Shown: positions 5,210 through 57,074, counted from the first letter of the stretch. The stretch is 64,000 nt of DNA from Candidatus Hodarchaeota archaeon (GCA_016839815.1 JAEOTM010000047.1:32001-96000); one strand, 5' to 3'. Numbers and translations are program-made. The notes: generated by a model from the sequence alone, not told the origin.

Positions 5210-6946
5210 TTAGCGACGTTTTCGGAGTGCGATCAGAGTAGCCAAAACAAACGGGAGAAAAATAAGTTCAAATCCAGGACTGATGGTTGGTGTAGTTTCC
5301 CTGTCATCAGTTGAGGTATTGTCTTCAACTGGTATTGTTGCTGAAATAGTAGAAGTAGTAGTATTCTCAGGTGGTAATCCATCATCTGTGGATTCCCACC
5401 AGCAGTCGTCATCCCAGATTTGACCTGTTTCGTCAGTGACGGTCAGTATAACAGTATATGATCCTTTTTCGTCAAATACAAATTCTACTTGGTCAGACCA
5501 ATTTCCGAAAGCAGGGAACAAAAACGAGGTATTATAGAAAATAACTTCACCACTCGGTTTTTTCATTTTGGCTTCAATATAAACGTATTTATCGACAGAA
5601 AAATGTGAAAATACTACAAATTCCATTGTACCACCTTCACCCACCTTGACATAATAGTCTTGATGAATGTGTACCTCAAAAGCTTTATCGTCGTCCAAGA
5701 CATCATAGTAACATGAAGCGTAATAGTATTCATTGTTGATATTATCTCTGACAACTAATTCTACACCATAATAGCCTGGTATATAGAATACGTATGAAAC
5801 CTGTTGAGACCAGGTTGACATGGAATGTAGGGTCACATTCGCATCAGAAAAGGTAATATTACTATATTCGTTACCACCTATAGGCCCATTAAATGTCAAT
5901 TCCACCGCGATCGATGTATCATTCTGCAAGAACGACCGGATTACTATGGTTAAATATTCAGGTTTCCCTACTTGAGCTACATAATCTTGTTCAAGGAATA
6001 CGACTATGTCACCATCAGTTACTTCCCACCAACAGTCGTCTTTCCAGGGATTATCCATATCATCAATGACAGTAAAGAATACATCGTAATATCCTACCTC
6101 CAAGAAGGTATGGGTCACTTCTGTGTGCCAGAATTCTCCTGAAAAAAGAAGGACCGAGAGGTTTTGGTAAAGAGTAATCTCTGTACCTGAAGGAAGTATC
6201 ATTGTTATAAACACTTGAACCGTCATGTTATGTTGAAAAGCGGAATAAATTTCGAAACCCATCCAACCAGAATCACCAATACGTGCATAGTTTTCCTGAT
6301 AGATCTTTATACTAAGGAATTCAGGAATATAGGGTTCTCCAGATTCAATCTTGATATCATCTATTAGCCAGCCTCGCATATCATTTGCGACTTCATCTCC
6401 TGTATCAAAATGAAATCGTACCTTAACAGAATTGTTTTTAAAAGGAGTTAGATCGAAGGCATATCTATACCATGAAGTGTGCATCGAAACATTCCCAATA
6501 TTTGTCCAGGTTAAGCCATCATCTGTTGAGATAAAGACCATCTTGTGATCGTAGTAGTCTCCAAGCTCAGTATCAGCATAACTCATGAGACTGAGGACAA
6601 TATTTCCACTTAGCCCAGTCAAATCCAAGTTTTCAGATATAAGATCTCCTGAATTATTAGTCTCTGTTCCAAACCCATCAAATGTCTCATAAGTCCCTGT
6701 TCGATTGTCTCCATACCAAGCGTAATATTTTCCGCTAGGAACATTACCTATTGGATGATTGGAGAGATCATCATTTTCTATATGCCATAAACCGGTTGCT
6801 TTCCACGGTAATAATGATCCTGATTCGAAATCCTCATATAGATCATCTCCCAGTACAGCAACTCCAGCAGGCATCATATTTAACATTCCTAGTGCAAATA
6901 TGACTAGGAATAAGCCATTTATTAATCGTGATCTCACAAATTTCAC
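5210..6946 (-). CDS. Secreted cell-surface protein with an N-terminal jelly-roll-like domain, three ~105-aa beta-sandwich repeats and a PGF-CTERM-like anchor
   Basis: Signal peptide; EDFESG..W and GWLIDDIKI motifs; three repeats; Thr-rich linker; SPGF + TM + RKRR. Confidence 0.8.
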   Translation of the reverse strand: MKFVRSRLINGLFLVIFALGMLNMMPAGVAVLGDDLYEDFESGSLLPWKATGLWHIENDDLSNHPIGNVPSGKYYAWYGDNRTGTYETFDGFGTETNNSGDLISENLDLTGLSGNIVLSLMSYADTELGDYYDHKMVFISTDDGLTWTNIGNVSMHTSWYRYAFDLTPFKNNSVKVRFHFDTGDEVANDMRGWLIDDIKIESGEPYIPEFLSIKIYQENYARIGDSGWMGFEIYSAFQHNMTVQVFITMILPSGTEITLYQNLSVLLFSGEFWHTEVTHTFLEVGYYDVFFTVIDDMDNPWKDDCWWEVTDGDIVVFLEQDYVAQVGKPEYLTIVIRSFLQNDTSIAVELTFNGPIGGNEYSNITFSDANVTLHSMSTWSQQVSYVFYIPGYYGVELVVRDNINNEYYYASCYYDVLDDDKAFEVHIHQDYYVKVGEGGTMEFVVFSHFSVDKYVYIEAKMKKPSGEVIFYNTSFLFPAFGNWSDQVEFVFDEKGSYTVILTVTDETGQIWDDDCWWESTDDGLPPENTTTSTISATIPVEDNTSTDDRETTPTISPGFELIFLPFVLATLIALRKRR

Positions 6947-43035: not shown

Positions 43036-45960
43036 TTAAGAACAATTCACACAACGAGCAACTACTTCTTCATTTTTGATTTTGACTTTAACCCTTCCAC
43101 AAGATTCACAAACCTCTGTTCCACATTTCTTACAGACAGAAAGAAGGTCAGGAGCGAAAGAGTTCTTACATCCTTGACATTGCTTAGGCATATGTTCAGG
43201 ACAATATGTAGCCTCTGTGTTTGGATCAAATGTACTACATTCACCACATAAACCCTGTCCACATACTTTGCATACTTCGGAGTGATCCAGGCAAGCAGTT
43301 TTTCCACACTTCTGGCAGAAAGAAATATGTTCACTACAGAATAGCTTAAAACAAGTAGTACACACAAATGTAGGAGGGGAAATTTCTCCTGCCAATAATG
43401 ATTGATAATAGTTCTCGGTGCTTATTTGAGGACCACATCCCTCGCACATGAGTTCAGCATTCCCATTATATAGATTAAGATTGAGATGAAATTGGTTAAT
43501 GTTTTCCACACTATCTCGGTTTTCTTTAATAGAAACAGGTATAGTTAAACGAGGGACCCAATATACTGATTTTTCAATAATCGACACATCTGCCTTACCT
43601 GGCCTATAGAGATCTGGTGGCACACCTTGACCCTTAAGAACTTCAATGGACTTATGAAATGCCTCATAATTTTCCTGTTTCTCTTTGAATAGCTCTTGTC
43701 GTTTCATTTCACTTTTTTTTATCTGCTTTCTAAGTTCTTTAGTTCGTTCTTCATGCCTCATCTGTTTAGTAGATGTAGAATCAATGGATCGTTCAATTGC
43801 TTTAACTGATCTTCCCTCTGCAACACGAGCTTTCCGCTCTCCCTCCAAACTTTCCACACGTATTAGTGTTTCATCAAGTTTTTGATTCTCGATTTGTAGT
43901 TTTTCCTCTATTCCGCTTATTTGATTAGATAACTTCGATAATTCCTTTCCAACTTTTTTTCCTGCAAGTTTTGAAATTTCAGTTCGTTCATATTCTCGTA
44001 ATCGCTCCTGATAGATCGATTCGGCCTCTGGAAAAGGATTCTGTGTAAAATACCAAATCAAATTTTCAGGGAGTTTAGTAATCACCTCTTTATCAAATTC
44101 AAGGAATTTATAATCTGAAAGGGGTTGAATTGCTAGATCTCTTGCGGGAAGAGAGGATGCGTGAATTCCTTCAATTGTGGTAGAGTTCCAATCAATTTTT
44201 CGTAAATCAAATGTACGAGACATTTCCTCTTTAATTTGTACTGGAAACAGTAATTGGCCTTCTTTAATTGTTCTTTTTATATCTATTAAGGTTTTTGTAA
44301 AATAAAGAGGAGAATAATATATCTCATAATCCCCTACCTCAAGATAAATTCCATCATGATCAGGATTGCCACTAAGACTTAGTCTTTCATGAATAACAGC
44401 CGTGTGTTCCTTATTTTCTGGTTTGATTTTCGGACTGAGAAAGCGTTCTGTAATTTTCCCCATTGCAGGTTTTTTCGACTTGAATGAGATTGTTGAAGGT
44501 AATTTCTCTTTCTTGACCTCAGAAACCGGTTTTTCTTTTTTCAGCTCAGCTTTTTTTGGTTTAGGAGGTTTTAACGTAAGAGCGGTAATTTCAGAATTGG
44601 TTAATGGGCCTTTATGTAAGCTTAACAACCAACGCGTTTTTAACATATTGACCCCATGGAGAGGATTGTAAGCGATGAAGTTACCTGGTTTCAGTGCACG
44701 AATCTTTCCCATTAAAGATTTAAACTCCTCTTCCGTACCACCACTCCCTTCAAACACAGGTTTTAACGCACCTTGAACTTTTGCAATATCTTGATTGGTA
44801 GCTAATCTACCTAGTACCCAAGTAGCGATATTTGACAGCCCCCGGTAATCTAAATCACCAGGATTCTGTGTTGCTAAAACACATCCTAGTCCTGCAGCTC
44901 TTGCTTGTTTTAATAATATTAGAAGTGCAGTTTTTGAAGGAGGACTAAGGGAACCAGCGGGCATGAATCCATACAACTCATCGAAGTATATTATAGCCCG
45001 TAAACGGCTTGTACCACCTTTCGACCAAGCCCAGCGTTGTACTTCTCCCAAAATTTCTGCTACAAAAGTATTTTTTTCATCGGAATCCGTTATTTTGCGT
45101 AGATCAAAAACTATAATAGGAGTTTTGTTCTCTTTCGTAGCTAAGCCAATTAATTTATCAAAATCAAGCTCCACTCCCGGAACTGTACGTACCATTAGTG
45201 CATTTATGTTACGGGCCAGTTCCTGACATTTAGTACTGGATATGAATTTATCAACTGCAAGTGAACCAACTTTTTTAAACGGAGGATCTTGGATTTTTTC
45301 TATTAGAAGATCCAAACCTACAACGTTCTTTCTTTCATTTTCCCATACATGACGAATTATATTGTTTAGATATATAACACGATTATCAGTAGAGGAAGAT
45401 GTACCTATCCCAACACGAGATAACAGTAATTGTATTTTCAGATCTAAAGCACTTAACACTGCATCAGGTGATTCTTCCATCATCTTACTATAGTTTTTGG
45501 GTTTTTCAAAATGAGGGGTTAGTGAAATTTGAACACCTGCAGCATTTTTAGGAGTAATTAGTATTGTAGCAACTCTATCTGAATATTCAGCTTCAGCTGA
45601 AAGGTAATCATCGCCAAATGAGTCTTCAAGCTTTTCTTCATATAAATTGATCCAATCATCTGCGATTTCTTCTGGATCTCCTCCCCCCCGATCTTCAGCT
45701 TCGACTTTGGCGTGTATTAATAGTCTATCTCTAGAAAAATCACCAAGTCCTATTCCTAATGCTCCAATATCTCCCTTGGGATCAATTGCTATTACTGGAA
45801 TATTCGATCGAATCGCTTCTTCAACTATTGACTTGCACACAACCGTTTTTCCCGAGCCTGAGGCCCCTAATACTGCAGCATGCGTTAAAAAAGTCGTAGA
45901 GGGTAATTCAAATCTTTCACCCTCACCTATTCGTCCGAGAAAAAATTTTGGATCAGTCAT
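43036..45960 (-). CDS. HerA/FtsK-like (DUF87/DUF853-type) P-loop ATPase with a coiled coil and a Cys-rich Zn-finger tail
   Basis: HAAVLGASGSGKT, IDPKGD, IIYFDE, LKQARAAGLGCVLATQNPGDLDY; long coiled coil; repeated CxxC-x4-CxxH/C. Confidence 0.85.
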   Translation of the reverse strand: MTDPKFFLGRIGEGERFELPSTTFLTHAAVLGASGSGKTVVCKSIVEEAIRSNIPVIAIDPKGDIGALGIGLGDFSRDRLLIHAKVEAEDRGGGDPEEIADDWINLYEEKLEDSFGDDYLSAEAEYSDRVATILITPKNAAGVQISLTPHFEKPKNYSKMMEESPDAVLSALDLKIQLLLSRVGIGTSSSTDNRVIYLNNIIRHVWENERKNVVGLDLLIEKIQDPPFKKVGSLAVDKFISSTKCQELARNINALMVRTVPGVELDFDKLIGLATKENKTPIIVFDLRKITDSDEKNTFVAEILGEVQRWAWSKGGTSRLRAIIYFDELYGFMPAGSLSPPSKTALLILLKQARAAGLGCVLATQNPGDLDYRGLSNIATWVLGRLATNQDIAKVQGALKPVFEGSGGTEEEFKSLMGKIRALKPGNFIAYNPLHGVNMLKTRWLLSLHKGPLTNSEITALTLKPPKPKKAELKKEKPVSEVKKEKLPSTISFKSKKPAMGKITERFLSPKIKPENKEHTAVIHERLSLSGNPDHDGIYLEVGDYEIYYSPLYFTKTLIDIKRTIKEGQLLFPVQIKEEMSRTFDLRKIDWNSTTIEGIHASSLPARDLAIQPLSDYKFLEFDKEVITKLPENLIWYFTQNPFPEAESIYQERLREYERTEISKLAGKKVGKELSKLSNQISGIEEKLQIENQKLDETLIRVESLEGERKARVAEGRSVKAIERSIDSTSTKQMRHEERTKELRKQIKKSEMKRQELFKEKQENYEAFHKSIEVLKGQGVPPDLYRPGKADVSIIEKSVYWVPRLTIPVSIKENRDSVENINQFHLNLNLYNGNAELMCEGCGPQISTENYYQSLLAGEISPPTFVCTTCFKLFCSEHISFCQKCGKTACLDHSEVCKVCGQGLCGECSTFDPNTEATYCPEHMPKQCQGCKNSFAPDLLSVCKKCGTEVCESCGRVKVKIKNEEVVARCVNCS

Positions 45961-46091
45961 TGTCTTTCCCTATATTTGATATTATGATGAAATTGAATTA
46001 AATTAATAAATGAATCCTTTAGTTCAAGGCCCAAATAAAACTATTCTATCTAAGAAACGCCAAAAATTTTCTGCTATACTGGTGTTGGAAG

Positions 46092-46276
46092 ATGTCTACA
46101 CAAAAGTTTCCTCTTATTACATTAAGCGGTACTCCAGAAGAAATAGGTACACAACATGGAGAACTCCTAAAAGACAAAATTCATTCTACAGTTACTTGGT
46201 ATAAAAAATAATCTCTTCCGATGAAGAACGTATTTTAACTCTATGTAAGCATTTTAAATGGGAGAATGGGATTTAA
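46092..46276 (+). pseudogene. N-terminal remnant of a C45-family (Ntn) peptidase/acyltransferase
   Basis: MSTQKFPLITLSGTPEEIGTQHGELLKDKI.. stops at 46209-46211 right after an A6 run. One extra A would continue as IISSDEERILTLCKHFK, which then ends. Confidence 0.5.
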
Positions 46277-46554
46277 GGAATACAAGTCAGGTTCTGAATA
46301 TAAATTCCAGGTTGATGAGCTTGAGAAAAAACTGATGTAATCAGTATTAATCCTAAATTATGGTTTTTCCCCTTTATTTCAAATTACTTTGTTGTGAATA
46401 GAATCGTTCATTAAAACAAAACGTTTTCATAATACATACCAAATCACAGTGCATAGGACGCATGATAGGCTTCCTGCTTAGCTTATCAGAACAGAATGGC
46501 ATTGATTGGCTTTCTAAAAACTCCCTATATGTAGAATTCTCAATAAGGAGATAA

Positions 46555-47148
46555 GTGTTCTTGGTAAATGTTGGTATATTAGGAGATATGAACTGCGGAA
46601 AAACCTCTGTTTTTGTACGATTTATGAATTCATTAGCAGCAACCAACGAAAAGATAATCGCTGGTAGCCCAGGTGGACCAGAGATGTATACCACACAGAC
46701 TGTAGATTTCATTCGATTCACTCATAGGGGATTTATCCATGTTTTATATGGCACAGGTGGGCATACAACACCTATTACCGATTATTATCGAGTTTATGTT
46801 TTGAGAAACGCTAACCGATTCCTTTGCATGTTTGATCTATCGATTGACTTAGATAGGCAACTTGAATTCTATCATAATCTTGAAATTCCCACAAAACAAG
46901 TAACGATTTTTCTTAACAAATATGATCTGGCAAAAGAAAACTATGAGGAATATAAGGAAAAGGTAGAGGATTTCTTTATTAATGATCAAAAAAAATTAAT
47001 AAAAGAAATTCTTCCCACTGTCGCCATTAAAGTTGAGGATAATCAATTTAAAAAGGAATCACAGAATTGTTTAAAGGGGATTTTAGATTTGTGTGAGTTT
47101 GACAAAGATGCGTCTGCATTTGACGTTTGGGATGGACAAGGAAAATAA
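46555..47148 (+). CDS. Small Ras-superfamily-like GTPase (MglA/Arf-like)
   Basis: G1 GDMNCGKTS, G2 TTQTVDF, G3 YGTGGH, MFD, G4 NKYD, G5-like TVA. Confidence 0.8.
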   Translation: MFLVNVGILGDMNCGKTSVFVRFMNSLAATNEKIIAGSPGGPEMYTTQTVDFIRFTHRGFIHVLYGTGGHTTPITDYYRVYVLRNANRFLCMFDLSIDLDRQLEFYHNLEIPTKQVTIFLNKYDLAKENYEEYKEKVEDFFINDQKKLIKEILPTVAIKVEDNQFKKESQNCLKGILDLCEFDKDASAFDVWDGQGK

Positions 47149-47167
47149 TTAAACCTAGGTTTTAATA

Positions 47168-48079
47168 TTGGAGAATTCTGATCCATTTACACAACTTGTT
47201 GATACTCTAGCTGTAATTGAAAATCAAAACCGCATTCTTTGCCTAATAGCGGTATATTTGGGTCAAAAAGCCGATCAAAACACTATCCAAGGAATTACCG
47301 ACATACTCTCAAGTCTTTTAGGTAAACATGAGCAATTTACTACGACAAAAACTCGGGGGTTGATCACCTCTCTTGTGAATGGTGGGATTCTGGAAAGAGA
47401 AAGAGAGAAAGTAATCAGCTCTACAAAAGTTTCTTTTCATTCGATCAGTTCTCTAGGCTATATTGTTTTGACTTATGTCCTACTGACATATGTCATAAGA
47501 ATCGATCCTGCTTCAATCGAATGGGATACCAAAAGATTCAATGAATATACTGATTCTGAAGAAAAGATGATTTTATTCTCTATTGACACCTTAATTACTC
47601 AGGAGACTACTCTGAAACGGGTTTATACTTCACTTAGATCAGGAAAAGACCCTCGTAAAATTAAACTCTCAAAACCCTTAATTATCCCAGTCAAAAAAGT
47701 CTTTTCTGGGAATACTGGATATAGAGTGTTTAAAATCTTTGAAGAACTAATTTGGGATTACTTACACAATAATACAGGATTCACTAAATTGGGACTTGAA
47801 CAATCAACAGAAATACCAACTGCATTAACTGGTTCATTGAAGAAACTGGATGGACTCTTTCTTCAACAAGAGAATTGGACAAAAGAAAGACGCTACCGAT
47901 TATCAATTCAGGGGATTTTCATTTTACCAATCTTTGCGTTACTAATTAAGCATTTTTCTGTGGATAAATCGTTATTTCCTTCCCTAAAATTAGCGAGACT
48001 AGAGAAAGATGAAAATTATTGGATTTCTCTGTCAAAATTAGGACATACGTTTTTTAAAACGGTATATAGGATCTCATAA
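47168..48079 (+). CDS. Tandem winged-helix-like protein
   Basis: ENQNRILCL..LITSLVNGGILER..HSISSLG and a second RVFKIF..LKKL..RYRLSIQG wing motif. Confidence 0.55.
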   Translation: MENSDPFTQLVDTLAVIENQNRILCLIAVYLGQKADQNTIQGITDILSSLLGKHEQFTTTKTRGLITSLVNGGILEREREKVISSTKVSFHSISSLGYIVLTYVLLTYVIRIDPASIEWDTKRFNEYTDSEEKMILFSIDTLITQETTLKRVYTSLRSGKDPRKIKLSKPLIIPVKKVFSGNTGYRVFKIFEELIWDYLHNNTGFTKLGLEQSTEIPTALTGSLKKLDGLFLQQENWTKERRYRLSIQGIFILPIFALLIKHFSVDKSLFPSLKLARLEKDENYWISLSKLGHTFFKTVYRIS

Positions 48080-48158
48080 TCCATTTTTTCTCTTTAATAG
48101 GGAAAATTAAAAAGCGACAAAATGAAAGATAACCTCCGAATTCTCAGAGGAAACTCAT

Positions 48159-49559
48159 TTGCTAAAGCTTTCAGATGAATTGAATAATCTCCATTATTTA
48201 CCACTTGTGGATATTCACACTCATATAGGCCGGGTTAAAATCGCAACAACAAAAGGAACCTCCCAACGAATCAACCAACCTCAAGATATAACGAATTTAT
48301 ATCAAAAGTTACAATATGAAATTGCTTCTCGTATCAATCAAACCAAAGAGAATCATTATATTGATATACTTGAGGTAGAAACATGTGTAGAACCTCTCTT
48401 CCCAATTGTTAAATCATTACTCAGCGAACAATCCACAGTGAAATCACGAGCTTGGTTAGTAGACAAAATTGTAACATTCCCTTTTAATGACTTATTCCAC
48501 CTAAAAACTGATCCTAAATTTGTAAAAAGTAATCGTTATGTTCGTCATCAGGTCAATACATTGGAAAATACTTTTAGATTTACTCCTTTTTGTCGTGTTG
48601 ATCCTACAGACTCGGATGCAACAAATGAAGTTCAAGAGTCTATTAAGCTTGGAATGTATGGATTGAAATTACATCCGCTTTCTCAAGGTTGGATAGAAAG
48701 AATAAAATCAGAAGAAACTAAGGAGGTATTACAAATTGCGGGAGATCTCAATATTCCAGTGATTTTTGATGTACCGAACAAAGGAGTGGCTCTTGATATT
48801 ACAGCCGTGACTCAAGAAGCGCGTGATGAATCAGAGTTTCCTGTTTCGGTAATACTTGGTCATACTGGATTTGATTATTCTTCTCCGGAGGTTTTTGAGT
48901 GTCTCTCACAAGAAGGAATGTATGCAGAAACTTCAGGAATGAGAGGGAAGGATGTTGAAATCTTCTTTAATAATGTATTAGAAGTTCCTGACTGGGAGGA
49001 TAAGCTCCTCTTCGGTACTGACCACAATTATTTTAGTGTTCTTCAAGCAACGGATGTAATTGCTTTTTTATTCTCAAATCAGTTCCGCACATTACTAATC
49101 GAAAACGGAATTCAAAAACAACCTATAGATATTGCATTCAAAATCTTAGGAGCGAATTCCTTATCCCTAATACCTGTAGCATGGCAAAGAAAAGAAAATA
49201 AATCTCCTAAACTCAAGTATAAAATCAACAAACAAGTATTTCTTCAGTTTCTCAAGAAGTTCATGAGTATAGAGGGAAATTACCAGAGGATTGACTTGGG
49301 GTATGATCAAGCAAAAGAACAAATTGTGCAAATCCTCACTATAGGGGAGAAAACCTCTAAAGTATCATTTGTAATTTATGAAACGATAAAACGAGACGAA
49401 ATTCTTTTGCACTCACTTCATTCAGCAATTCAAAAAGTGAATTATAGAGAACATTCATTATTTCCAATACTTTCCTCGCAAAAATCATTGAGAAGAGCAA
49501 AAAAATTGTCCTTGGAGAAACTAGAGACTACGATGTCGCAGAATATGTCGCAAGAGTGA
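48159..49559 (+). CDS. Metal-dependent amidohydrolase (Amidohydro_2) with a C-terminal extension
   Basis: DIHTHIG, GLKLHP, ILGHTG, ETSG, LLFGTD. Confidence 0.88.
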   Translation: MLKLSDELNNLHYLPLVDIHTHIGRVKIATTKGTSQRINQPQDITNLYQKLQYEIASRINQTKENHYIDILEVETCVEPLFPIVKSLLSEQSTVKSRAWLVDKIVTFPFNDLFHLKTDPKFVKSNRYVRHQVNTLENTFRFTPFCRVDPTDSDATNEVQESIKLGMYGLKLHPLSQGWIERIKSEETKEVLQIAGDLNIPVIFDVPNKGVALDITAVTQEARDESEFPVSVILGHTGFDYSSPEVFECLSQEGMYAETSGMRGKDVEIFFNNVLEVPDWEDKLLFGTDHNYFSVLQATDVIAFLFSNQFRTLLIENGIQKQPIDIAFKILGANSLSLIPVAWQRKENKSPKLKYKINKQVFLQFLKKFMSIEGNYQRIDLGYDQAKEQIVQILTIGEKTSKVSFVIYETIKRDEILLHSLHSAIQKVNYREHSLFPILSSQKSLRRAKKLSLEKLETTMSQNMSQE

Positions 49560-52500
49560 AAACAATGGAACTAAAAGACTACTTATTAGAAACACCGTTA
49601 TACTTCTCACATGGGATTGAAGTCGAAAATCATCTTGTGGATACTACTTCAGGTGAAGTACTGGTGGGAAATGATCTTCTGAGTACATGGGAGGAGATGT
49701 TTTCTGGAGCAGCAAAATATTTAGAGAAACTAAAGAAAGCAAAACATACTCCAAAAACTATAGCAAAGAAGATAGTCAAAATAGAAGTCGCTGAAGAGCT
49801 AAAAAGAGAGAAACGGTTAAATTTCATATTCGTTCATTACCGACTTGGAAAGAAAACAGTCCGAGTCAATGTATTTGGTCCTGATCCAAATATTTCACAA
49901 ATTACCTGGTTATTAGAATTAGTAACCCCTCCCTGTGAGTATCTTGAAGAGATCGCATTTTGGATCGACTCTTTATACGCAGCTGCAGCTCATGGATTAT
50001 CAAAACTAAAGAGTAAGTACAAGCTGTTACCTTTAGGCCTGAATCCCATGGAAAAACGAGTACGAAGCGGTTTAACCTGTGGAGAGCACCACCATATTGG
50101 TGTAGCGTCATTTATTCGAGCACCTGTTTATAATATGTTACGCAACTATACTCCTCATTTGATCGCATTAAGCGCCACTTCTCCTTTTCTTAATCAAAAA
50201 CCTAGTAGTAAGATCATTGTTAAGGAGAAAGAAGGAAAAAAGCAAGTAATTAGTAGAGGTATTCATTCTTATCGTCTAGCAAATAATACAGGACAAATGG
50301 GACCAAACATTCCGCAATACCTTCCCATTATAGATGATATGACTACTCGGGAAGATTTTGCACGCTCGATCCGCAAAGTTCCCCCTGAGGACCGAATGAT
50401 AGATCTTTTCCCCTATACAGATTATTCAACAATCGAGCTAAGGTTCTTTGATGCCCAACCTTGGAGGGAAAATCGTTTAGCTATGGTGTTACTTATTCAA
50501 GCCTTAGCACAAAAGACGAAAAACTTGATTAAAGAGAGGAAAGCAGTTCCAACTGTTTCTTCGCAGAGTTTATATGAAAACCGTCGAAAAGCAATTCAAT
50601 TTGGCCTATTAGCTCAATTTACAAGGGATGAAAATCTAACTGGGGAGTTTGCCTGGTTCTATAACTATGATATCGAAAATGGAGTAAAAGCATCTAAGTT
50701 AATGCATTCTGTCCTGGCATTATTCATTTACATTGAGGATGAACTTCTTGATTTGAATTCAAAGTATGTTGACCAGGTTCTTCTACCTGTTTTAGGTTCG
50801 GAAAAATTTGCTCCTCCATTTACAGTATGTGAATATCTCCTATCACTCTTCACTGAAAAAGGGGAAAATGCCAATGAATTCCTGAATGAAATCTATTATT
50901 CTGAAAAACTTACTTATCCTCCGAAAGTAGCAGGTAATTTTTCTTCTTTTCTTGTTGAAAACCCTCCCGACTCATTTTCAGAAGTTAGTGCAGAAAAAGA
51001 CAACTTAACCAGAATCTTAAGGCAGGATATCGCCACACGAGATGTTTTCAAGAGTCAACCTCCTCCAAAACCAAAAAAGAGAAAGATAAAGAAACCTGTT
51101 GTCCCTAAAGAGATACCTGTTGTAAAACCAAAGAAAAAAGTCCTAGTTGAAACACCTAAGAAAGTCCCACCTAAGAAGAAGGAACCAACCAAAACACCAA
51201 AAACAAAACCTGCAAAAGCAAAAAAACCAACTAAAGTTCCCCTCCTAAAGAAGGAAGTAAAGAAAACTCCTAAACTTAAACCAGTAGAAATCGTGCAGGA
51301 AAAAGCAAGTCAGGTAATTTCTGCATTTGATGAAAATGAAGATCTCGAAATTTATTCCCCTATGATTGAGATAGAACCAAAATATCAGAAGATTAACTCT
51401 AAAATCGCAAATATTATGCGTACACGTCGTCAAGAAATTGAAGCAAAACGAGTTGTATTCTTCCGAGAGCATCTAAAAGCAGAAGAATCTAATTTTAAGC
51501 CATTCCCAAAGAAAAGAGCCGCTGTATTTCCCGCTTTAATATCTGGTTCTGAATTATTTGGTTATATTGAGCTTACATTCGGTGATATAAAGAAAGTAAT
51601 GTACCAATTTAGGAACAATCCTATAACTTTAAGATTTTACGATGATACCACGAATAAAGAGGTAGATACGTTAAGGACTTTCATTGATATATCAACACTT
51701 GAAAAACGCCAAATGGTAAGAATACCTTGTTCTATCGACCTGGGAGAACTCTATGGAAAGATTAAGCTAAGAGTGGAGGCGGTTACCTCAACAAATCATC
51801 GATTATTGCCCGAAAAGTTCAGTTTTACATTAGAACGCAAAGATGAAATTAGTATTTCCCCCAAGGAGTTCTATATCACAAGTAATTTTGGGTCTGTAGA
51901 ATGCATTTACAAAGCAACCAATGACTCAAAGAAGGAAGAAAGAGGGGAGTTGACGCTCCTATTAGCTACACAAGCATCATCATCACCTATTGTCATTTAT
52001 GAGGAAAAGTTCTCAATTAAACCTCGTGCATCCTATGAATTGGCACGAAGTATTGATTTGTCAATTGATTATCAGCATAGTTCCTTTTATATTTTAGCTC
52101 GTGTAACTACAGGGCTTTTAAAGAAAAACCGATCTTTTAAGAGCATTCATGTTCCTGTATTACGTGAAGTGGTTGTCGATTGGTCATTTGAAACCCACAC
52201 TGGTTCTAAAAATGACTTATGGCTGGGTGTAGAGCCTAAAACACACTATGCTGTAGATTTTGTGTTTCATTTCCTTAGGTCATTGCCACCTGTAAGTATT
52301 ACAATCTATATTAACACATTTCCTCAAGGTGAAACAAAAAAATTGACGAGTTTACGATTAAAACGTTTCATCGATAAAGGAGACGAATTCCGTGCGCCAA
52401 CGGTCAAATTTAAGACTCCGAAAAAATGTGGTTACTTAATCTTTGACGCGCAGATCCGTACTGAAAAAGGAATTCTTCCCATGCACCTTATTTCAGAACC

Positions 52501-52564
52501 TATTGGGGTATATGCGTTAACCACAAAATCTACTTTCGAACAAAGCCGGAATTTAGATTTGTAA
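49556..52564 (+). CDS. GCS2/YbdK-like carboxylate-amine ligase domain + Lys/Pro-rich linker + beta-rich C-terminal domains
   Basis: HGIEVE, LELVTP, GEHHHIG, ALSATSPF, HSYR, TIELRFFDAQ, ENRRKAIQFG. The GTG start overlaps the upstream TGA. Confidence 0.82.
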   Translation: MKTMELKDYLLETPLYFSHGIEVENHLVDTTSGEVLVGNDLLSTWEEMFSGAAKYLEKLKKAKHTPKTIAKKIVKIEVAEELKREKRLNFIFVHYRLGKKTVRVNVFGPDPNISQITWLLELVTPPCEYLEEIAFWIDSLYAAAAHGLSKLKSKYKLLPLGLNPMEKRVRSGLTCGEHHHIGVASFIRAPVYNMLRNYTPHLIALSATSPFLNQKPSSKIIVKEKEGKKQVISRGIHSYRLANNTGQMGPNIPQYLPIIDDMTTREDFARSIRKVPPEDRMIDLFPYTDYSTIELRFFDAQPWRENRLAMVLLIQALAQKTKNLIKERKAVPTVSSQSLYENRRKAIQFGLLAQFTRDENLTGEFAWFYNYDIENGVKASKLMHSVLALFIYIEDELLDLNSKYVDQVLLPVLGSEKFAPPFTVCEYLLSLFTEKGENANEFLNEIYYSEKLTYPPKVAGNFSSFLVENPPDSFSEVSAEKDNLTRILRQDIATRDVFKSQPPPKPKKRKIKKPVVPKEIPVVKPKKKVLVETPKKVPPKKKEPTKTPKTKPAKAKKPTKVPLLKKEVKKTPKLKPVEIVQEKASQVISAFDENEDLEIYSPMIEIEPKYQKINSKIANIMRTRRQEIEAKRVVFFREHLKAEESNFKPFPKKRAAVFPALISGSELFGYIELTFGDIKKVMYQFRNNPITLRFYDDTTNKEVDTLRTFIDISTLEKRQMVRIPCSIDLGELYGKIKLRVEAVTSTNHRLLPEKFSFTLERKDEISISPKEFYITSNFGSVECIYKATNDSKKEERGELTLLLATQASSSPIVIYEEKFSIKPRASYELARSIDLSIDYQHSSFYILARVTTGLLKKNRSFKSIHVPVLREVVVDWSFETHTGSKNDLWLGVEPKTHYAVDFVFHFLRSLPPVSITIYINTFPQGETKKLTSLRLKRFIDKGDEFRAPTVKFKTPKKCGYLIFDAQIRTEKGILPMHLISEPIGVYALTTKSTFEQSRNLDL

Positions 52565-52665
52565 TGGATTCGAACTTGTACTCATTTCTTTCAAAGGATT
52601 TAATTTTTAAAGGATAAATCAACCTAAACTGAAACAATATAGGATTACCTAACCAAGGAGACTTC

Positions 52666-53949
52666 TTGATGACTCACAAAGTTGTAAATGTAGGAAATAT
52701 TGAAGGACGGGCATATCTCCATACCCTAGATATAGAAAAACTAGGTATTAATGAATTTGATTATGTTAAGATGGTGACAGAATGGGAGGATTGGGGTGCA
52801 GTTCAAATACTTTCATCAGATGAAGTGGAACAGGGCACTATCGCTGTAGATGGAAGTGTACTCTCATCAGCAAACATCTCAGATGGTGATGCAGTCGAAG
52901 TTGAAGCAGTAAAGGCCACAGCAGGTATTAAATCTATCAAACTTGGAATCGAACCTCTCGCAGGACAAGAGGTTGAAGAAGCTATCTTATGGATCGCTAC
53001 TGAATTCGAACAGCTATCTACATTGCTCAAAAATCGTCCTGTCTTTAATAATTTACAGATCTCATGGGAAGATTGCCCTATTGGAAGTTTGACCGTGAGA
53101 TTCTTAGGTGCAGATCCTCCAATCCCTGACGAGGATATCGGAATAGTTGATCCTACTGGTAGAGAAGTAGAAATTAACATTATTCCTTTCACTGAAATGA
53201 GTTTCAACGCTGTTTTGGTTCTTGATGTATCGGGTAGTATGTCTAAAAAGGATATGAAAGTTAAAAATATTAGTGGCGCTCTAGAAGGATTGAAGAAAGG
53301 CTTAGACGAATCTAATGAACTTAATGCGTTTATAGAAAAGTTTCAAGATGGAAAGAAAGTTTCTAGAGTGGATGCGGCTGCAATGGCAATTATGTTGTTC
53401 ATGTCACTCAAGATTGCAAAGGGATGGGGAGAACAGATCCAATTATTGACGTTTTCTGGAGAAGTGGAGAAATTTGAACTTGGGGAATCAAATGTTATTT
53501 CCTGTGTAGGTGAAACCAAAAAAGCAGGAATTGAGAGTATTATAGATCACGTTGTGCAAAAAACCGCAGAAAGTACTGGGTTGACCTTTTTGAGTGGGGC
53601 AATTGATCAAGCATACAAAAGTATTGATAGTTTTGACGACAATCCTACAATCCAAAAGAAAAATCCGACCATGATTATTGTTCTGACTGACGGTAATCCA
53701 AATAAAGGAAATGGACTTGGAGTAAATCCTATTCCAATTGTTAAGCAACAGGTTGAGCAATTTCCCGAAGTGGTTCTCTATGCTATCGGTTTAGGCGAAG
53801 CAGATCGACTAATGTTACGTAAGATTGGAGAAATGGGTCGTGGAGGAAGTCTGATGGCCGATGACCTGGAAACGTTAATCGATTTTTACGATTCATTAGC
53901 TCAAAATTTCCAGATGGTCGTTAAAATGAAAAAGGAACCAGAGGAATAA
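52666..53949 (+). CDS. CDC48/VAT N-terminal-like domain fused to a vWA domain
   Basis: GRAYLH..EKLGINEFDYV..GTIAVD..NISDGDAVEV (double-psi barrel); LDVSGSM, T and LTDG (MIDAS); YAIGLG. Confidence 0.82.
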   Translation: MMTHKVVNVGNIEGRAYLHTLDIEKLGINEFDYVKMVTEWEDWGAVQILSSDEVEQGTIAVDGSVLSSANISDGDAVEVEAVKATAGIKSIKLGIEPLAGQEVEEAILWIATEFEQLSTLLKNRPVFNNLQISWEDCPIGSLTVRFLGADPPIPDEDIGIVDPTGREVEINIIPFTEMSFNAVLVLDVSGSMSKKDMKVKNISGALEGLKKGLDESNELNAFIEKFQDGKKVSRVDAAAMAIMLFMSLKIAKGWGEQIQLLTFSGEVEKFELGESNVISCVGETKKAGIESIIDHVVQKTAESTGLTFLSGAIDQAYKSIDSFDDNPTIQKKNPTMIIVLTDGNPNKGNGLGVNPIPIVKQQVEQFPEVVLYAIGLGEADRLMLRKIGEMGRGGSLMADDLETLIDFYDSLAQNFQMVVKMKKEPEE

Positions 53950-54159: not shown

Positions 54160-55719
54160 ATGAGCTTTTTTGGGAATGAGTGTTTAGGTGAACATATGCC
54201 AGAATACAAAGTTGTAACATCCGATATTGATCCAAAAGACGCTGTTCTAGTTTCTCCGGAAAATAATCAACAAATAGTTACTCAAGCAAAATTTACTCTA
54301 GCTTTTAAAGGAGCAGAAGAAAAAGTTGGTCAGGTTTTCAAGTTAAAATGCTTCTTAGAAGAAGATGAAATTGGTTTGTCTCAGGTGATGATGAATAAGC
54401 TTGGAATAACAGAAGGAGAAAAAGTACGTCTGCAATCAATTGGACGGACAATCTCCAGAAGCTTTCCTCTAATTAAACAACGAATAACTCAACCTGGAAG
54501 AATGTTCACTAAAAACGAAATAGATCAAATAATCAGCGATATTACTCTCGACAACATGACCCCACTTGAAGAATCGGTTTTTCTAACCTCTCAGATGCTT
54601 CAAGAATGGAGTATTGGAGAAATTGAATGTTTAACCAACGCAATAGCTCATTCAGGGCAAATGATCAATTGGGGAGATACAGTTATCTTTGATAAGCACT
54701 CTCTTGGTGGGGTTCCAGGTAACAAGGTAACTCTTTTAGTTGTTCCTATAATTGCTGCAGCTGGATTAACTATTCCTAAAACTTCGTCACGAGCTATTAC
54801 CAGTCCTTCAGGTACAGCTGATACCATGGAAGCTCTTGGATGTAAAATTGAATTTACTATTGATGAAATGGTTGACATTGCTCACAATATTGGGGGACTT
54901 ATTGCTTGGACAGGTGGTTTAAACATTGTTCCTGCTGATGAGAAAATAATTCGTGATGTTCAATATCCTTTAGGTATTGATCCCGAACCAATGATGATGG
55001 CTTCAGTGATCTCCAAGAAAGTTGCGATGGGAGTTAAGTTCCTTGTTTTAGATATTCCAACGGGATATGGTACTAAGGTTGCTAGTTTAGATGATGGTAA
55101 ACGGATTGCTCATCGATTTGCAGAGTTAGGACGGTTACTTGGAATACGAATTGAAAGTGGAATAACTTACGGTAGCTCACCTGTCGGTAATGCCATTGGA
55201 CCTGGATTAGAGGCTAGAGAAGCATTGACTAGCTTGATGAATCCCTTAGAAGCTCCACATTCCTTAGTAGGGAAAAGTACCTCACTAGCAGGTATTCTTT
55301 TGGAAATGGCTGGTAAAGCTATTGCTGGTGCAGGTCAAGAAATGGCATATGAGATTTTGAACTCTGGCCAGGCCTATCAGAAATTCCAAGAAATTCTTGA
55401 AGCACAGAATGCGGAACCTGACTTAAAACCAGAAAACATTGAAGTTGGGTCAGCAACATATGACTATCTAGCTCCTCAAAGCGGTTATGTTGTAGAAATC
55501 AATAATAAAGTAATCGTTCGGGCTGCTCGAGCAGCTGGAGCTCCTATGGACAAACGTGCTGGTGTGTACTTCCATAAAAAGAAAGATTCTGTGAAACGTG
55601 GAGAACCCTTATTTACTTTGCACGCTCCTTCAGAAAAAAAGTTATCAGCTGCTCAAGCTGAATTAACTAAAGGAGATTTACCTGTTACTATTGAAGGTAT
55701 GCTTCTAGCACGTGAATGA
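54160..55719 (+). CDS. AMP phosphorylase (archaeal thymidine-phosphorylase family)
   Basis: DKHSLGGVPGNK, PKTSSRAITSPSGTADTME, LDIPTG.GTKV, ARAAGAPMDK.AG. Likely start is 54196. Confidence 0.93.
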   Translation: MSFFGNECLGEHMPEYKVVTSDIDPKDAVLVSPENNQQIVTQAKFTLAFKGAEEKVGQVFKLKCFLEEDEIGLSQVMMNKLGITEGEKVRLQSIGRTISRSFPLIKQRITQPGRMFTKNEIDQIISDITLDNMTPLEESVFLTSQMLQEWSIGEIECLTNAIAHSGQMINWGDTVIFDKHSLGGVPGNKVTLLVVPIIAAAGLTIPKTSSRAITSPSGTADTMEALGCKIEFTIDEMVDIAHNIGGLIAWTGGLNIVPADEKIIRDVQYPLGIDPEPMMMASVISKKVAMGVKFLVLDIPTGYGTKVASLDDGKRIAHRFAELGRLLGIRIESGITYGSSPVGNAIGPGLEAREALTSLMNPLEAPHSLVGKSTSLAGILLEMAGKAIAGAGQEMAYEILNSGQAYQKFQEILEAQNAEPDLKPENIEVGSATYDYLAPQSGYVVEINNKVIVRAARAAGAPMDKRAGVYFHKKKDSVKRGEPLFTLHAPSEKKLSAAQAELTKGDLPVTIEGMLLARE

Positions 55720-56135
55720 TGATAATTACGAAAATGAAACCATCGGCATCCCTTCCTCTTGATCTTCTATCCACATTCGTAGATTATTGTAACTCGATAA
55801 CTGATTCCACTGTTATTGTTGTCGAAGGGAACCGAGATATCGAAGCATTAAGATCAATTGGTTTAAATTTAACAAGTGGAAAAATACTAGCAAAAAAGGG
55901 ATTATCTCTAGCCCAAACCGTTGACCAAATCTATAAATTTCCTGTGATAATTTTACTTCTTGATTTTGATAAAGCAGGAGCTCGTATACGGGGAAAATTA
56001 AAACAGGAAATTCAAAAACGCAAAGGTCATGGACTTATTGATTCTTTCCCAAGGCAATTACTGTATAAATTTTGTCGTGCCGCTCGTATAAACGAAATCG
56101 AAGAAATTAAACAATTTTCAGATTTAATTCTCTAA
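55716..56135 (+). CDS. Stand-alone TOPRIM domain protein (UPF0292/RNase M5-like)
   Basis: VVEGNRD..AL, LLDFDKAG; ATGA overlap with the AMP phosphorylase gene. Confidence 0.85.
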   Translation: MMIITKMKPSASLPLDLLSTFVDYCNSITDSTVIVVEGNRDIEALRSIGLNLTSGKILAKKGLSLAQTVDQIYKFPVIILLLDFDKAGARIRGKLKQEIQKRKGHGLIDSFPRQLLYKFCRAARINEIEEIKQFSDLIL

Positions 56136-56225: not shown

Positions 56226-57074
56226 ATGAAAATCGGGGATTCTTCAGGATTAAAAAATGAAAAACTCTTTTTTCCTAGGCGCACAACCATTGCGAGTTTT
56301 CCTGGTGGAAAAAGTGATGTAAAAAAGCACCTTCCACTTTATTCATCGATCCCCATAAAAGTAGACTATTTAGTTGAACCTTTTGCAGGTTTAGCTAATG
56401 TCTTCATTTCAATATCCCCAAGAGTTTCGCGAGTATGGTTAAATGATAAAGATCCTGAAATTTATTCACTTCTCCATTGCATCAATGATTCTTCATTACT
56501 CCCCCAGCTCATAGAATATATTAAATCGTTGGAGCCCATTGATAAAGCTGATTATTATCATTGGAAAGAGTCTAATCCCTCTGAACTGTTAGAACGTGCA
56601 GTCAGAAGATTAGTCATACTCAATTGTTCTCCCAATGGAGCTGGAGGAGGATATAGTAGGGAAAAAGCTCATCGGAAATGGTACCAAAACAAACCCAAAC
56701 TTTGGTTTACAATTCAGCAGATTTTTCATAAAAAATATGTACGGATTACTAATCTTGATTATGAAGAAATTCTAAATTCTTTCTCTCATGTTGAGCATGA
56801 GAAGAAATATTTTCTCTATTTAGACCCCCCATATTATGATGTGGCACAAAAAGGCTCTTTATATGGCAAAAAATTCAATCTTATTGATTTAAAGGAATTG
56901 AAATCGTTGTTAGCTCCTCTTTCGATTCACTGGTTATTATCAAATCGGGATACTCCTAGGGTCAGAGAGATCTTTAGAGAATTTCACTTATTTGGATATA
57001 ATACCTATAATGATATGAATAATACGAAAAGTAATAATCCTGAACTTCTCATTAGTAATCGTCCTTTTGAATAA
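56226..57074 (+). CDS. Dam-like (D12 class) DNA adenine methyltransferase, orphan
   Basis: FPGGKS, VEPFAG, LND, YLDPPYY, LLSN, ELLISN. Confidence 0.9.
   Translation: MKIGDSSGLKNEKLFFPRRTTIASFPGGKSDVKKHLPLYSSIPIKVDYLVEPFAGLANVFISISPRVSRVWLNDKDPEIYSLLHCINDSSLLPQLIEYIKSLEPIDKADYYHWKESNPSELLERAVRRLVILNCSPNGAGGGYSREKAHRKWYQNKPKLWFTIQQIFHKKYVRITNLDYEEILNSFSHVEHEKKYFLYLDPPYYDVAQKGSLYGKKFNLIDLKELKSLLAPLSIHWLLSNRDTPRVREIFREFHLFGYNTYNDMNNTKSNNPELLISNRPFE

Follow-up and report, generated by a model that had tools for sequence, protein, structure and literature searches.

A GCS2-like ligase, a TIM-barrel hydrolase and a Cdc48-N-like/vWA protein form an ancient, all-or-none, Asgard-restricted module

Introduction

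ATP-dependent ligation of carboxylates to amines, and the pairing of such ligases with hydrolases and recognition proteins, are known from several described systems. Carboxylate-amine ligases of the YbdK/GCS2 type (PF04107; PDB 1r8g and 1tt4) are one example, and pupylation (PafA/Dop with Pup and Mpa) is another, combining a glutamine-synthetase-fold ligase with a hydrolase and a β-barrel recognition protein. In the FluG/NodGS systems (e.g. SCO6961/SCO6962), a triose-phosphate isomerase (TIM) barrel of the amidohydrolase superfamily is coupled genetically to an ATP-dependent ligase of the glutamine synthetase fold (PMC6478659). Barrels of the Cdc48-N/Ufd1 type act as substrate- or cofactor-binding modules, and vWA domains with a complete metal ion-dependent adhesion site (MIDAS) serve as protein-protein adaptors in CbbO, NorD, CoxE, BchD/ChlD and Rpn10. 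No known organisms are more closely related to eukaryotes than the Asgard archaea, whose lineage-specific proteins for the most part lack an assigned role. Here we analyze a stretch of 64,000 nucleotides from a Candidatus Hodarchaeota archaeon (JAEOTM010000047.1:32001-96000, hereafter the window), in which six neighboring genes had been read, from the sequence alone, as a candidate undescribed amide-tagging or protein-handling system. Three of the six, encoding a GCS2/YbdK-type ligase, a TIM-barrel hydrolase and a protein with a Cdc48-N-like barrel and a vWA domain (the vWA protein), constitute an ancient, Asgard-restricted enzyme module that is present all or none, and we refer to them as the trio. 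The other three, encoding a GTPase, a 303-residue protein and a HerA-like ATPase, we infer to be lineage-specific regulators or partners and not core parts, so that the proposed six-gene system stands for the trio only.

Results

The trio is inherited as a unit

An even sample of the phylum, made up of 201 Asgard genomes in 27 anonymous numbered GTDB families, was searched with one profile each for the ligase domain, hydrolase and vWA protein. Public labels conflict for f13-type contigs (Thor, Hermod, Hod and Promethearchaeia). The three profiles match 100, 100 and 99 genomes, respectively, and all hits fall in the same nine families (f1, f6, f9, f10, f11, f13, f22, f26 and f27), which bears out for the trio the co-occurrence in other genomes that the sequence-only reading had called for. 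The profile search found no trio gene in any of the remaining 18 families, including f2 (0 of 21 genomes) and f16 (0 of 19). Genome counts of the three genes differ by no more than two within any family, and in the few discordant genomes that were checked the position of the missing gene is a contig end. Two complete paralogous sets are present in each of f11 and f22, for example at G038:C1 2917697-2925801 and 2376351-2383001.

The three genes lie close together in every lineage sampled, within ~12 kb in most and with the vWA gene up to ~40 kb away in one family, and their order varies. The hydrolase gene precedes the ligase gene in the genus of the window and in f6; in f9, f11 and f22 the hydrolase gene is followed by the vWA gene, facing the ligase gene; in f10 a hydrolase-vWA pair lies 6-12 kb from the ligase gene; and in f13 and f26 the ligase gene is followed by the hydrolase gene, with the vWA gene 5-40 kb distant. 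Family f10 also encodes a fusion protein of 870-890 residues, composed of a hydrolase-like domain (residues 7-325) and a vWA-like domain (residues ~540-830), which lacks both the HxH/H/H/D catalytic residues and the MIDAS residues and is thus catalytically dead.

Ligase and vWA-protein homologues in a collection of 5.8 billion proteins are all either labeled Asgard or encoded on contigs syntenic with Heimdall contigs; given this synteny, the contigs without an Asgard label appear to be mis-binned. Taken together, the identical phyletic pattern, the proximity, the duplication as sets, the fused paralogue and a complex prediction that passes its controls (see below) support the conclusion that the three genes are a functional unit that is inherited, lost and duplicated together.

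The ligase combines a divergent GCS2-type domain with a tethered Ig-like array

The catalytic GCS2/YbdK-type domain of the ligase is confined to residues 1-~480. Pfam GCS2 matches only 49 residues of it (169-217; 30.9 bits versus a cut-off of 21), and the NCBIfam carboxylate-amine ligase model PRK13515 matches with an E-value of 1.9e-16 and 59.7 bits versus an equivalog cut-off of 371 bits; NCBIfam scores are ~60 bits overall, set against equivalog cut-offs of ~370-430 bits. A profile of 38 ligase sequences, run against all PDB chains at E ≤ 1, retrieves YbdK (1r8g/1tt4) at E ~1e-12 and GshAB weakly, and it matches no PafA or Dop chain. The comparison with YbdK, GshA, PafA and Dop that had been suggested thus comes out, at the level of sequence profiles, for YbdK, weakly for GshAB and with no match to the pupylation enzymes. 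Residues E19, E21, E118, H175, H177, E291 and R293 are invariant in the 38 sequences and align to the YbdK motifs. Judged by these matches, the protein is a divergent member of the GCS2 superfamily, neither a YbdK or GshA equivalog nor, by sequence, a relative of PafA/Dop. Since the metal- and ATP-binding residues common with YbdK are retained, it would be expected to convert a carboxylate to an acyl-phosphate and couple this to an amine.

Beyond the catalytic domain, a disordered Lys/Pro-rich tether (residues ~499-580, nucleotides ~51050-51296; 61% Lys, Pro and Arg over 80 residues) leads to a long helix and three immunoglobulin (Ig)-like β-sandwich domains (residues ~616-987, nucleotides ~51400-52516). 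This C-terminal part is modeled with a predicted local distance difference test score (pLDDT) of 86, and its matches in Foldseek and VIA-align are β-sandwiches of the macroglobulin and transglutaminase types. These matches are generic Ig- or macroglobulin-like, with Z < 8, and denote a common fold only, so that a specific function cannot be read from them.

A predicted complex of the hydrolase with the vWA protein

Pfam gives no match for the window hydrolase itself at E ≤ 0.01; its orthologues carry PF04909, as does 100% of the nearest ESM Atlas cluster. Eight residues (D18, H20, H22, K170, H172, D204, H235 and D288) are invariant in 23 orthologues. The model is a TIM barrel (pLDDT 89.4) whose top Foldseek matches are the lactonase LigI and the decarboxylases IDCase, γ-RSD and ACMSD (E 1e-8 to 1e-6). 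The hydrolase is therefore a member of the Amidohydro_2 clade with a complete mononuclear metal site, and the label of amidohydrolase holds for clade and barrel, though not for the nearest folds, which belong to a lactonase and decarboxylases and not to amide hydrolases. Because these are its closest solved relatives, amide cleavage by the hydrolase, as the proposed eraser, is an assumption. An extra C-terminal α/β domain (residues ~353-466, nucleotides 49215-49559), consisting of one helix, a five-stranded sheet and a terminal helix, is modeled confidently and is poorly conserved in sequence.

The vWA protein is composed of a Cdc48-N-like barrel region (residues 1-~175) and a vWA domain (residues ~180-420) with a complete MIDAS, whose residues D187, S189, S191, T307 and D342 are invariant in 31 sequences. 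The previously proposed architecture is clear for the vWA domain (Pfam VWA, 34.3 bits); CDC48_N (PF02359) falls below its cut-off in the window protein (27.8 versus 35.1 bits) and is precomputed on many orthologues. Of the trio, this is the most conserved member, with 93-97% identity where the ligase has 79-86% and the hydrolase 60-71%. The vWA proteins of f13 and f26 are longer (720-764 residues), owing to an extra N-terminal region of ~300 residues with further CDC48_N-like segments. The N-terminus of the window protein weakly matches TIGR03327 (E 1.5e-4), in the N-terminal region of that AMP-phosphorylase model; BLASTP found no similarity to the neighboring AMP-phosphorylase-like protein, and a similarity of the two N-domains was rejected.

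Pairwise complex modeling, also proposed earlier, gave a positive result for the hydrolase and the vWA protein. The interaction prediction score from aligned errors (ipSAE), which is a model confidence and not a measurement and so supports binding without showing it, was 0.79, 0.79 and 0.80 in the three runs and 0.00 in all three controls; the same mark is reached by 58 of 80 solved complexes and by 2 of 110 mismatched pairs. The runs share at least 80% of their contacts, with a partner pLDDT of 78. On the hydrolase side the predicted interface includes the loops after the catalytic strands (174-179, 206-213, 239-240, 260-268 and 291-295); on the side of the vWA protein it includes invariant residues near 63-74 and 96-100 in the barrel, and E207, K249 and C280 in the vWA domain. 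MIDAS residues are absent from the confidently placed contacts. The model thus predicts a stable pair, in which the mouth of the TIM barrel, and with it the active-site face of the hydrolase, would lie under the Cdc48-N-like barrel and under a face of the vWA domain that is conserved and distinct from the MIDAS.

The position of these residues also bears on an account in which the module acts on itself: the hydrolase-vWA pair would be the working enzyme, and the ligase would modify a partner, for example at an invariant interface Lys or Glu, to switch that partner on or off or to mature its metal site. Invariant residues E207, K249 and C280 of the vWA protein and K170 of the hydrolase map to the predicted interface and active site or to their immediate vicinity, and the strict co-inheritance of the trio would fit as well. 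The Ig-like arm of the ligase, however, would be unnecessary for a fixed partner, and we regard this account as improbable.

A proposed ligation/hydrolysis cycle on a macromolecular substrate

The most likely mechanism, which we put forward tentatively, is a cycle of ligation and hydrolysis on a macromolecular substrate. The ligase would make an amide bond at a carboxylate or an amine of a protein or peptide, with the tether and the Ig-like domains serving as an arm for docking; the bond made by the ligase would be reversed or processed by the hydrolase-vWA pair, and the barrel and the MIDAS would supply substrate recognition. Macromolecular docking is what the Ig-like array and the basic disordered tether point to, and the macromolecular reading draws on this arm, on the adaptor-type barrel-MIDAS partner predicted to cap the hydrolase, on the dead paralogue with its suggested scaffold role and on the finding that no metabolic neighbor is conserved. 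It may be that the cycle tags proteins, with the ligase as writer, the hydrolase as eraser and the vWA protein as reader, as the sequence-only reading had it.

Several observations weigh against a macromolecular substrate. To our knowledge, the characterized enzymes of the GCS2 family (YbdK and γ-Glu-Cys ligases; Lehmann 2004, as cited in PMC13674229) all act on small molecules. Small-molecule enzymes with vWA subunits are also known, among them the Mg and Co chelatases. The structures nearest to the hydrolase include no amide or isopeptide hydrolase; their substrates are small aromatic acids or lactones. The ligase of f13 and f26 has just ~570 residues and lacks the Ig-like C-terminus; a gene of ~600 codons lies directly upstream of this short ligase. 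No intergenic open reading frame (ORF) of 25-110 residues that could encode a tag is conserved across lineages in the trio loci. The absence of PafA/Dop from the profile matches and the nature of the complex score, both given above, count on the same side, and pairs of a FluG-type amidohydrolase and a γ-glutamyl ligase show that such pairing occurs in small-molecule metabolism, by way of a γ-glutamylated intermediate (PMC6478659). As regards Pup-like tags, the cross-lineage clusters of small ORFs that were considered as candidates are all shadow frames inside conserved genes; proteasome and AAA+ families were likewise not found among the called neighbors of the trio loci.

An alternative is a small-molecule pathway, in which the ligase would γ-glutamylate or otherwise amidate a metabolite or amine, the hydrolase would catalyze a hydrolysis, decarboxylation or ring opening in that pathway, and the vWA protein would be a structural or regulatory subunit as in chelatases. 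YbdK as the nearest solved relative of the ligase, the LigI, IDCase, γ-RSD and ACMSD folds nearest to the hydrolase, the FluG/NodGS-type precedent for the pairing (PMC6478659) and acyl-CoA dehydrogenase genes 1-3 kb from trio genes in three lineages all fit this pathway. Against it, no metabolic or transporter neighbor of the trio is conserved across lineages, and the proximity of the acyl-CoA dehydrogenase genes may be chance because such genes are common. The Ig-like arrays of the ligase and its long, basic, disordered tether also speak against such a pathway, as do the conservation of the obligatory vWA/barrel partner, which exceeds that of both enzymes, and the dead fusion paralogue, which suggests a scaffold role. 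On balance we consider the small-molecule pathway somewhat unlikely, and keep the cycle on a macromolecular substrate as the working mechanism.

Locus organization and lineage-specific genes

The coordinates of the six genes and of the features discussed in this and the preceding sections are collected in Table 1. All six ORFs, their strands and the gaps of 19, 79, -4 and 101 nucleotides along the co-directional row are as the sequence-only reading gave them, and the GTGA overlap of the hydrolase stop with a GTG start of the ligase is present in the sequence. The public gene call (P0001, 999 residues) places the ligase start at the ATG at 49565, 9 nucleotides downstream of the GTG, so that the overlap depends on the choice of start codon; a 4-nucleotide overlap of the longest hydrolase and ligase ORFs is seen again in each of the six relatives from the same genus whose sequence covers the junction (L001, L003, L004, L010, L025 and L026). 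The row from 46555 to 53949 is probably one operon in this lineage. Within the genus-level lineage the six-gene arrangement is retained down to 57% ligase identity (L010, L025 and L026). An Asgard origin, earlier judged probable, is borne out, since the nearest public relatives of all the proteins are labeled Hodarchaeales or Heimdallarchaeota.

Table 1. Positions of the six genes of the window, of flanking features and of related features at other loci (window positions are counted from its first nucleotide; other positions are prefixed by locus or contig).
Feature	Position	Strand	Remarks
HerA/FtsK-type P-loop ATPase, 974 aa	43036-45960	-	Divergent to the other five; DUF87, HerA_C, PADLOC mad8/HerA matches
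Divergent intergenic region, HerA-like gene/GTPase gene	45961-46554		594 nt; ~270-320 nt in L001 and L010, 2.5 kb in L004
Divergent P-loop GTPase, 197 aa	46555-47148	+	First gene of co-directional row; lineage-specific accessory
Orphan protein, 303 aa	47168-48079	+	Lineage-specific accessory; no Pfam or PDB match
Amidohydro_2-clade metal-dependent TIM-barrel hydrolase, 466 aa (core 2)	48159-49559	+	Invariant metal residues, model, Foldseek
GCS2/YbdK-type carboxylate-amine ligase, 1002 aa (core 1)	49556-52564	+	Pfam, NCBIfam, profile match to YbdK
Cdc48-N-like barrel + MIDAS-vWA protein, 427 aa (core 3)	52666-53949	+	Pfam VWA and CDC48_N
AMP-phosphorylase-like gene, 519 aa	54160-55719	+	Directly downstream of vWA gene; Glycos_transf_3 and PYNP_C
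Small Toprim-domain gene	55716-56135	+	4-nt overlap with AMP-phosphorylase-like gene stop
D12-class N6-adenine DNA methyltransferase gene	56226-57074	+	After Toprim gene
Dead hydrolase-vWA fusion, f10	L015:2391-5063	-	Divergent to active hydrolase-vWA pair
Dead hydrolase-vWA fusion, f10	L024:16840-19461	+	Divergent to active hydrolase-vWA pair
Dead hydrolase-vWA fusion, f10	L028:17134-19770	+	Divergent to active hydrolase-vWA pair
Short ligases, f13 and f26	L020:4744-6495; L023:7548-9269; L027:16631-18289
Long vWA proteins, f13 and f26	L020:15680-17845; L023:12837-15131
Acyl-CoA dehydrogenase genes	L011:5326-6471; L016:17704-18849; L014:13320-14549; L018:2682-5245		1-3 kb from trio genes
Gelsolin homologues	L020:14111-15422; L023:11278-12670; L027:3993-5406; L017:6544-7425		Adjoin vWA or hydrolase gene
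Gelsolin-like gene outside the window, same genome	G000:C118:4692-5609		In G000:C118:1993-6141, between Ras-family GTPase genes at 1993-2520 and 5662-6141

The assignment of the first gene to a HerA-like ATPase is well founded: DUF87 scores 30.6 bits versus a cut-off of 23.2, PADLOC mad8 matches residues 26-387 (E 1.3e-14), a single Walker A motif (GASGSGKT) lies at residue 32, the middle of the protein is coiled coil, and nine CxxC motifs fall in the last 135 residues (839-973). All its NCBIfam equivalog scores are far below the cut-offs. The gene adjoins the trio only in the lineage of the window and in L014. Full-length orthologues were found only in the window's genus, in L014 and in f18, which has no trio; shorter HerA-like relatives occur in families without the trio, and the HerA-like query found none in f13, f11 and f6, all of which carry it. 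With a distribution uncoupled from that of the trio, the ATPase was rejected as a core part.

The GTPase and the 303-residue protein are found beside the trio only in the genus-level lineage of the window, and GTPase orthologues only in the same-genus loci L001, L004, L010, L025 and L026. The GTPase call holds for the P-loop and NKxD motifs in the sequence; domain matches (GTP_EFTU, Roc and small_GTP) are sub-threshold, and in a scan of the window's own genome the protein stayed short of E 1e-3 with Pfam Ras. In three of ~12 other lineages a Ras-like GTPase gene is found no more than 10 kb from the trio, which is about what chance would give, since the window's own genome has ~60 Ras-family matches, or ~1 per 70 kb; small GTPases are therefore not supported as a general partner of the trio, and only the operonic GTPase of the window lineage counts.

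For the 303-residue protein, the earlier call of a winged helix-turn-helix protein was not confirmed. In a set of 1.84 billion proteins the family has 16 cluster representatives; weak PadR winged-helix matches (E 3e-4 and 9e-3) come from two of its distant members, and the protein may have an N-terminal winged helix. It also has two hydrophobic segments (residues ~92-110 and ~245-265; hydropathy windows ≥ 1.6). Homology with the genes that precede the ligase gene in other lineages was rejected, there being no hhalign match.

The HerA-like ATPase, vWA protein and GTPase could also be read as the basis of an anti-virus or conflict system, and vWA and GTPase domains do occur in known conflict systems. 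The ATPase matches the PADLOC mad8 and HerA models, and Toprim and D12 methyltransferase genes lie downstream. This reading is nonetheless very improbable: the five co-directional proteins have no PADLOC match, the trio is near-universal in the families that carry it, vertically patterned and located among housekeeping genes (e.g. MetRS, PFK and pyrophosphatase), and the distribution of HerA is uncoupled from it.

Other neighbors across lineages

No conserved ORF was found in the divergent intergenic region at the HerA-like end of the locus. At the other end, the AMP-phosphorylase-like gene is syntenic in L001-L004 and absent from this position in L010, where the Toprim gene also comes after the vWA gene.

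A gelsolin homologue, identified by a profile match to Lokiarchaeota 2DGel (E 7e-16), is a direct neighbor of either the vWA gene or the hydrolase gene in three families (f13, f26 and f22b), and a 130-residue Roadblock/LC7 gene adjoins the vWA gene in f13 and f26; a 217-residue f22a protein considered as roadblock-like was not confirmed. With only five gelsolin-like and eleven roadblock genes in the window's own genome, chance adjacency is less likely, and we treat these neighbors as a lead only, from a post hoc observation. Cytoskeletal targets are hinted at by these gelsolin and roadblock neighbors in three families. In a fuller version of the macromolecular cycle, the trio would be an Asgard-specific reversible protein-modification machine, in which the YbdK-type ligase writes an amide mark (e.g. 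γ-glutamyl or isopeptide), the hydrolase-vWA/Cdc48N heterodimer recognizes and removes it, small GTPases provide input and the targets are perhaps cytoskeletal. We consider this fuller version unlikely as a whole. If true, ubiquitin/Pup-like logic would have arisen independently a third time, in the archaea most closely related to eukaryotes.

Discussion

The predicted complex, two intact catalytic sites and retention in nine of 27 families make the trio a concrete, testable enzyme system. A protein substrate would make it a new kind of reversible modification in archaea; a metabolite substrate would point to an Asgard-specific pathway with an unusual vWA-capped hydrolase. The all-or-none pattern offers a handle for finding the substrate through phylogenetic profiling. 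A literature search found no description of an Asgard GCS2/carboxylate-amine ligase or of a vWA protein with an amidohydrolase, nor of a Cdc48-N-like barrel-vWA fusion or its pairing with an Amidohydro_2 enzyme.

Of the described systems, the YbdK/GCS2 enzymes are closest to the ligase, whose N-terminal ~480 residues align with them across the GIExE, GxHxH...SPF and TxExR motifs, and ATP-dependent carboxylate-amine ligation would be expected of both. The trio ligase differs in an insert of ~55 residues after the first motif, in a C-terminal extension of 500-900 residues (tether and Ig-like domains) and in its obligatory genomic partnership with the hydrolase and the vWA protein. In Roseiflexus (L005), by comparison, a canonical bacterial GCS2 gene has an unrelated context, beside a gene for a circularly permuted ATP-grasp protein. 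Pupylation is similar in concept, in its combination of ligase, hydrolase and β-barrel recognition protein. The trio ligase shows no profile similarity to PafA/Dop at E ≤ 1, however; the hydrolase is an unrelated TIM barrel and not a paralogue of the ligase; and the trio loci have no Pup-like small ORF, proteasome or AAA+ genes.

With FluG/NodGS, the trio shares the genetic coupling of an amidohydrolase-superfamily TIM barrel to an ATP-dependent ligase, a resemblance that is functional only: the FluG ligase is GSI-like and fused, whereas that of the trio is GCS2-type and encoded by a separate gene; the FluG hydrolase is described with a binuclear site containing a carbamylated Lys, whereas the trio hydrolase has an ACMSD-like mononuclear spacing; and FluG has no vWA or barrel partner. 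The vWA protein resembles the vWA adaptors in its complete MIDAS, and its N-terminal barrel resembles the Cdc48-N/Ufd1-type modules; it differs from those adaptors in having no MoxR or AAA+ partner. Set beside these systems, the trio joins a ligase and a hydrolase to an obligatory adaptor subunit that is new, and that it constitutes a new protein-modification system is a real, though unproven, possibility.

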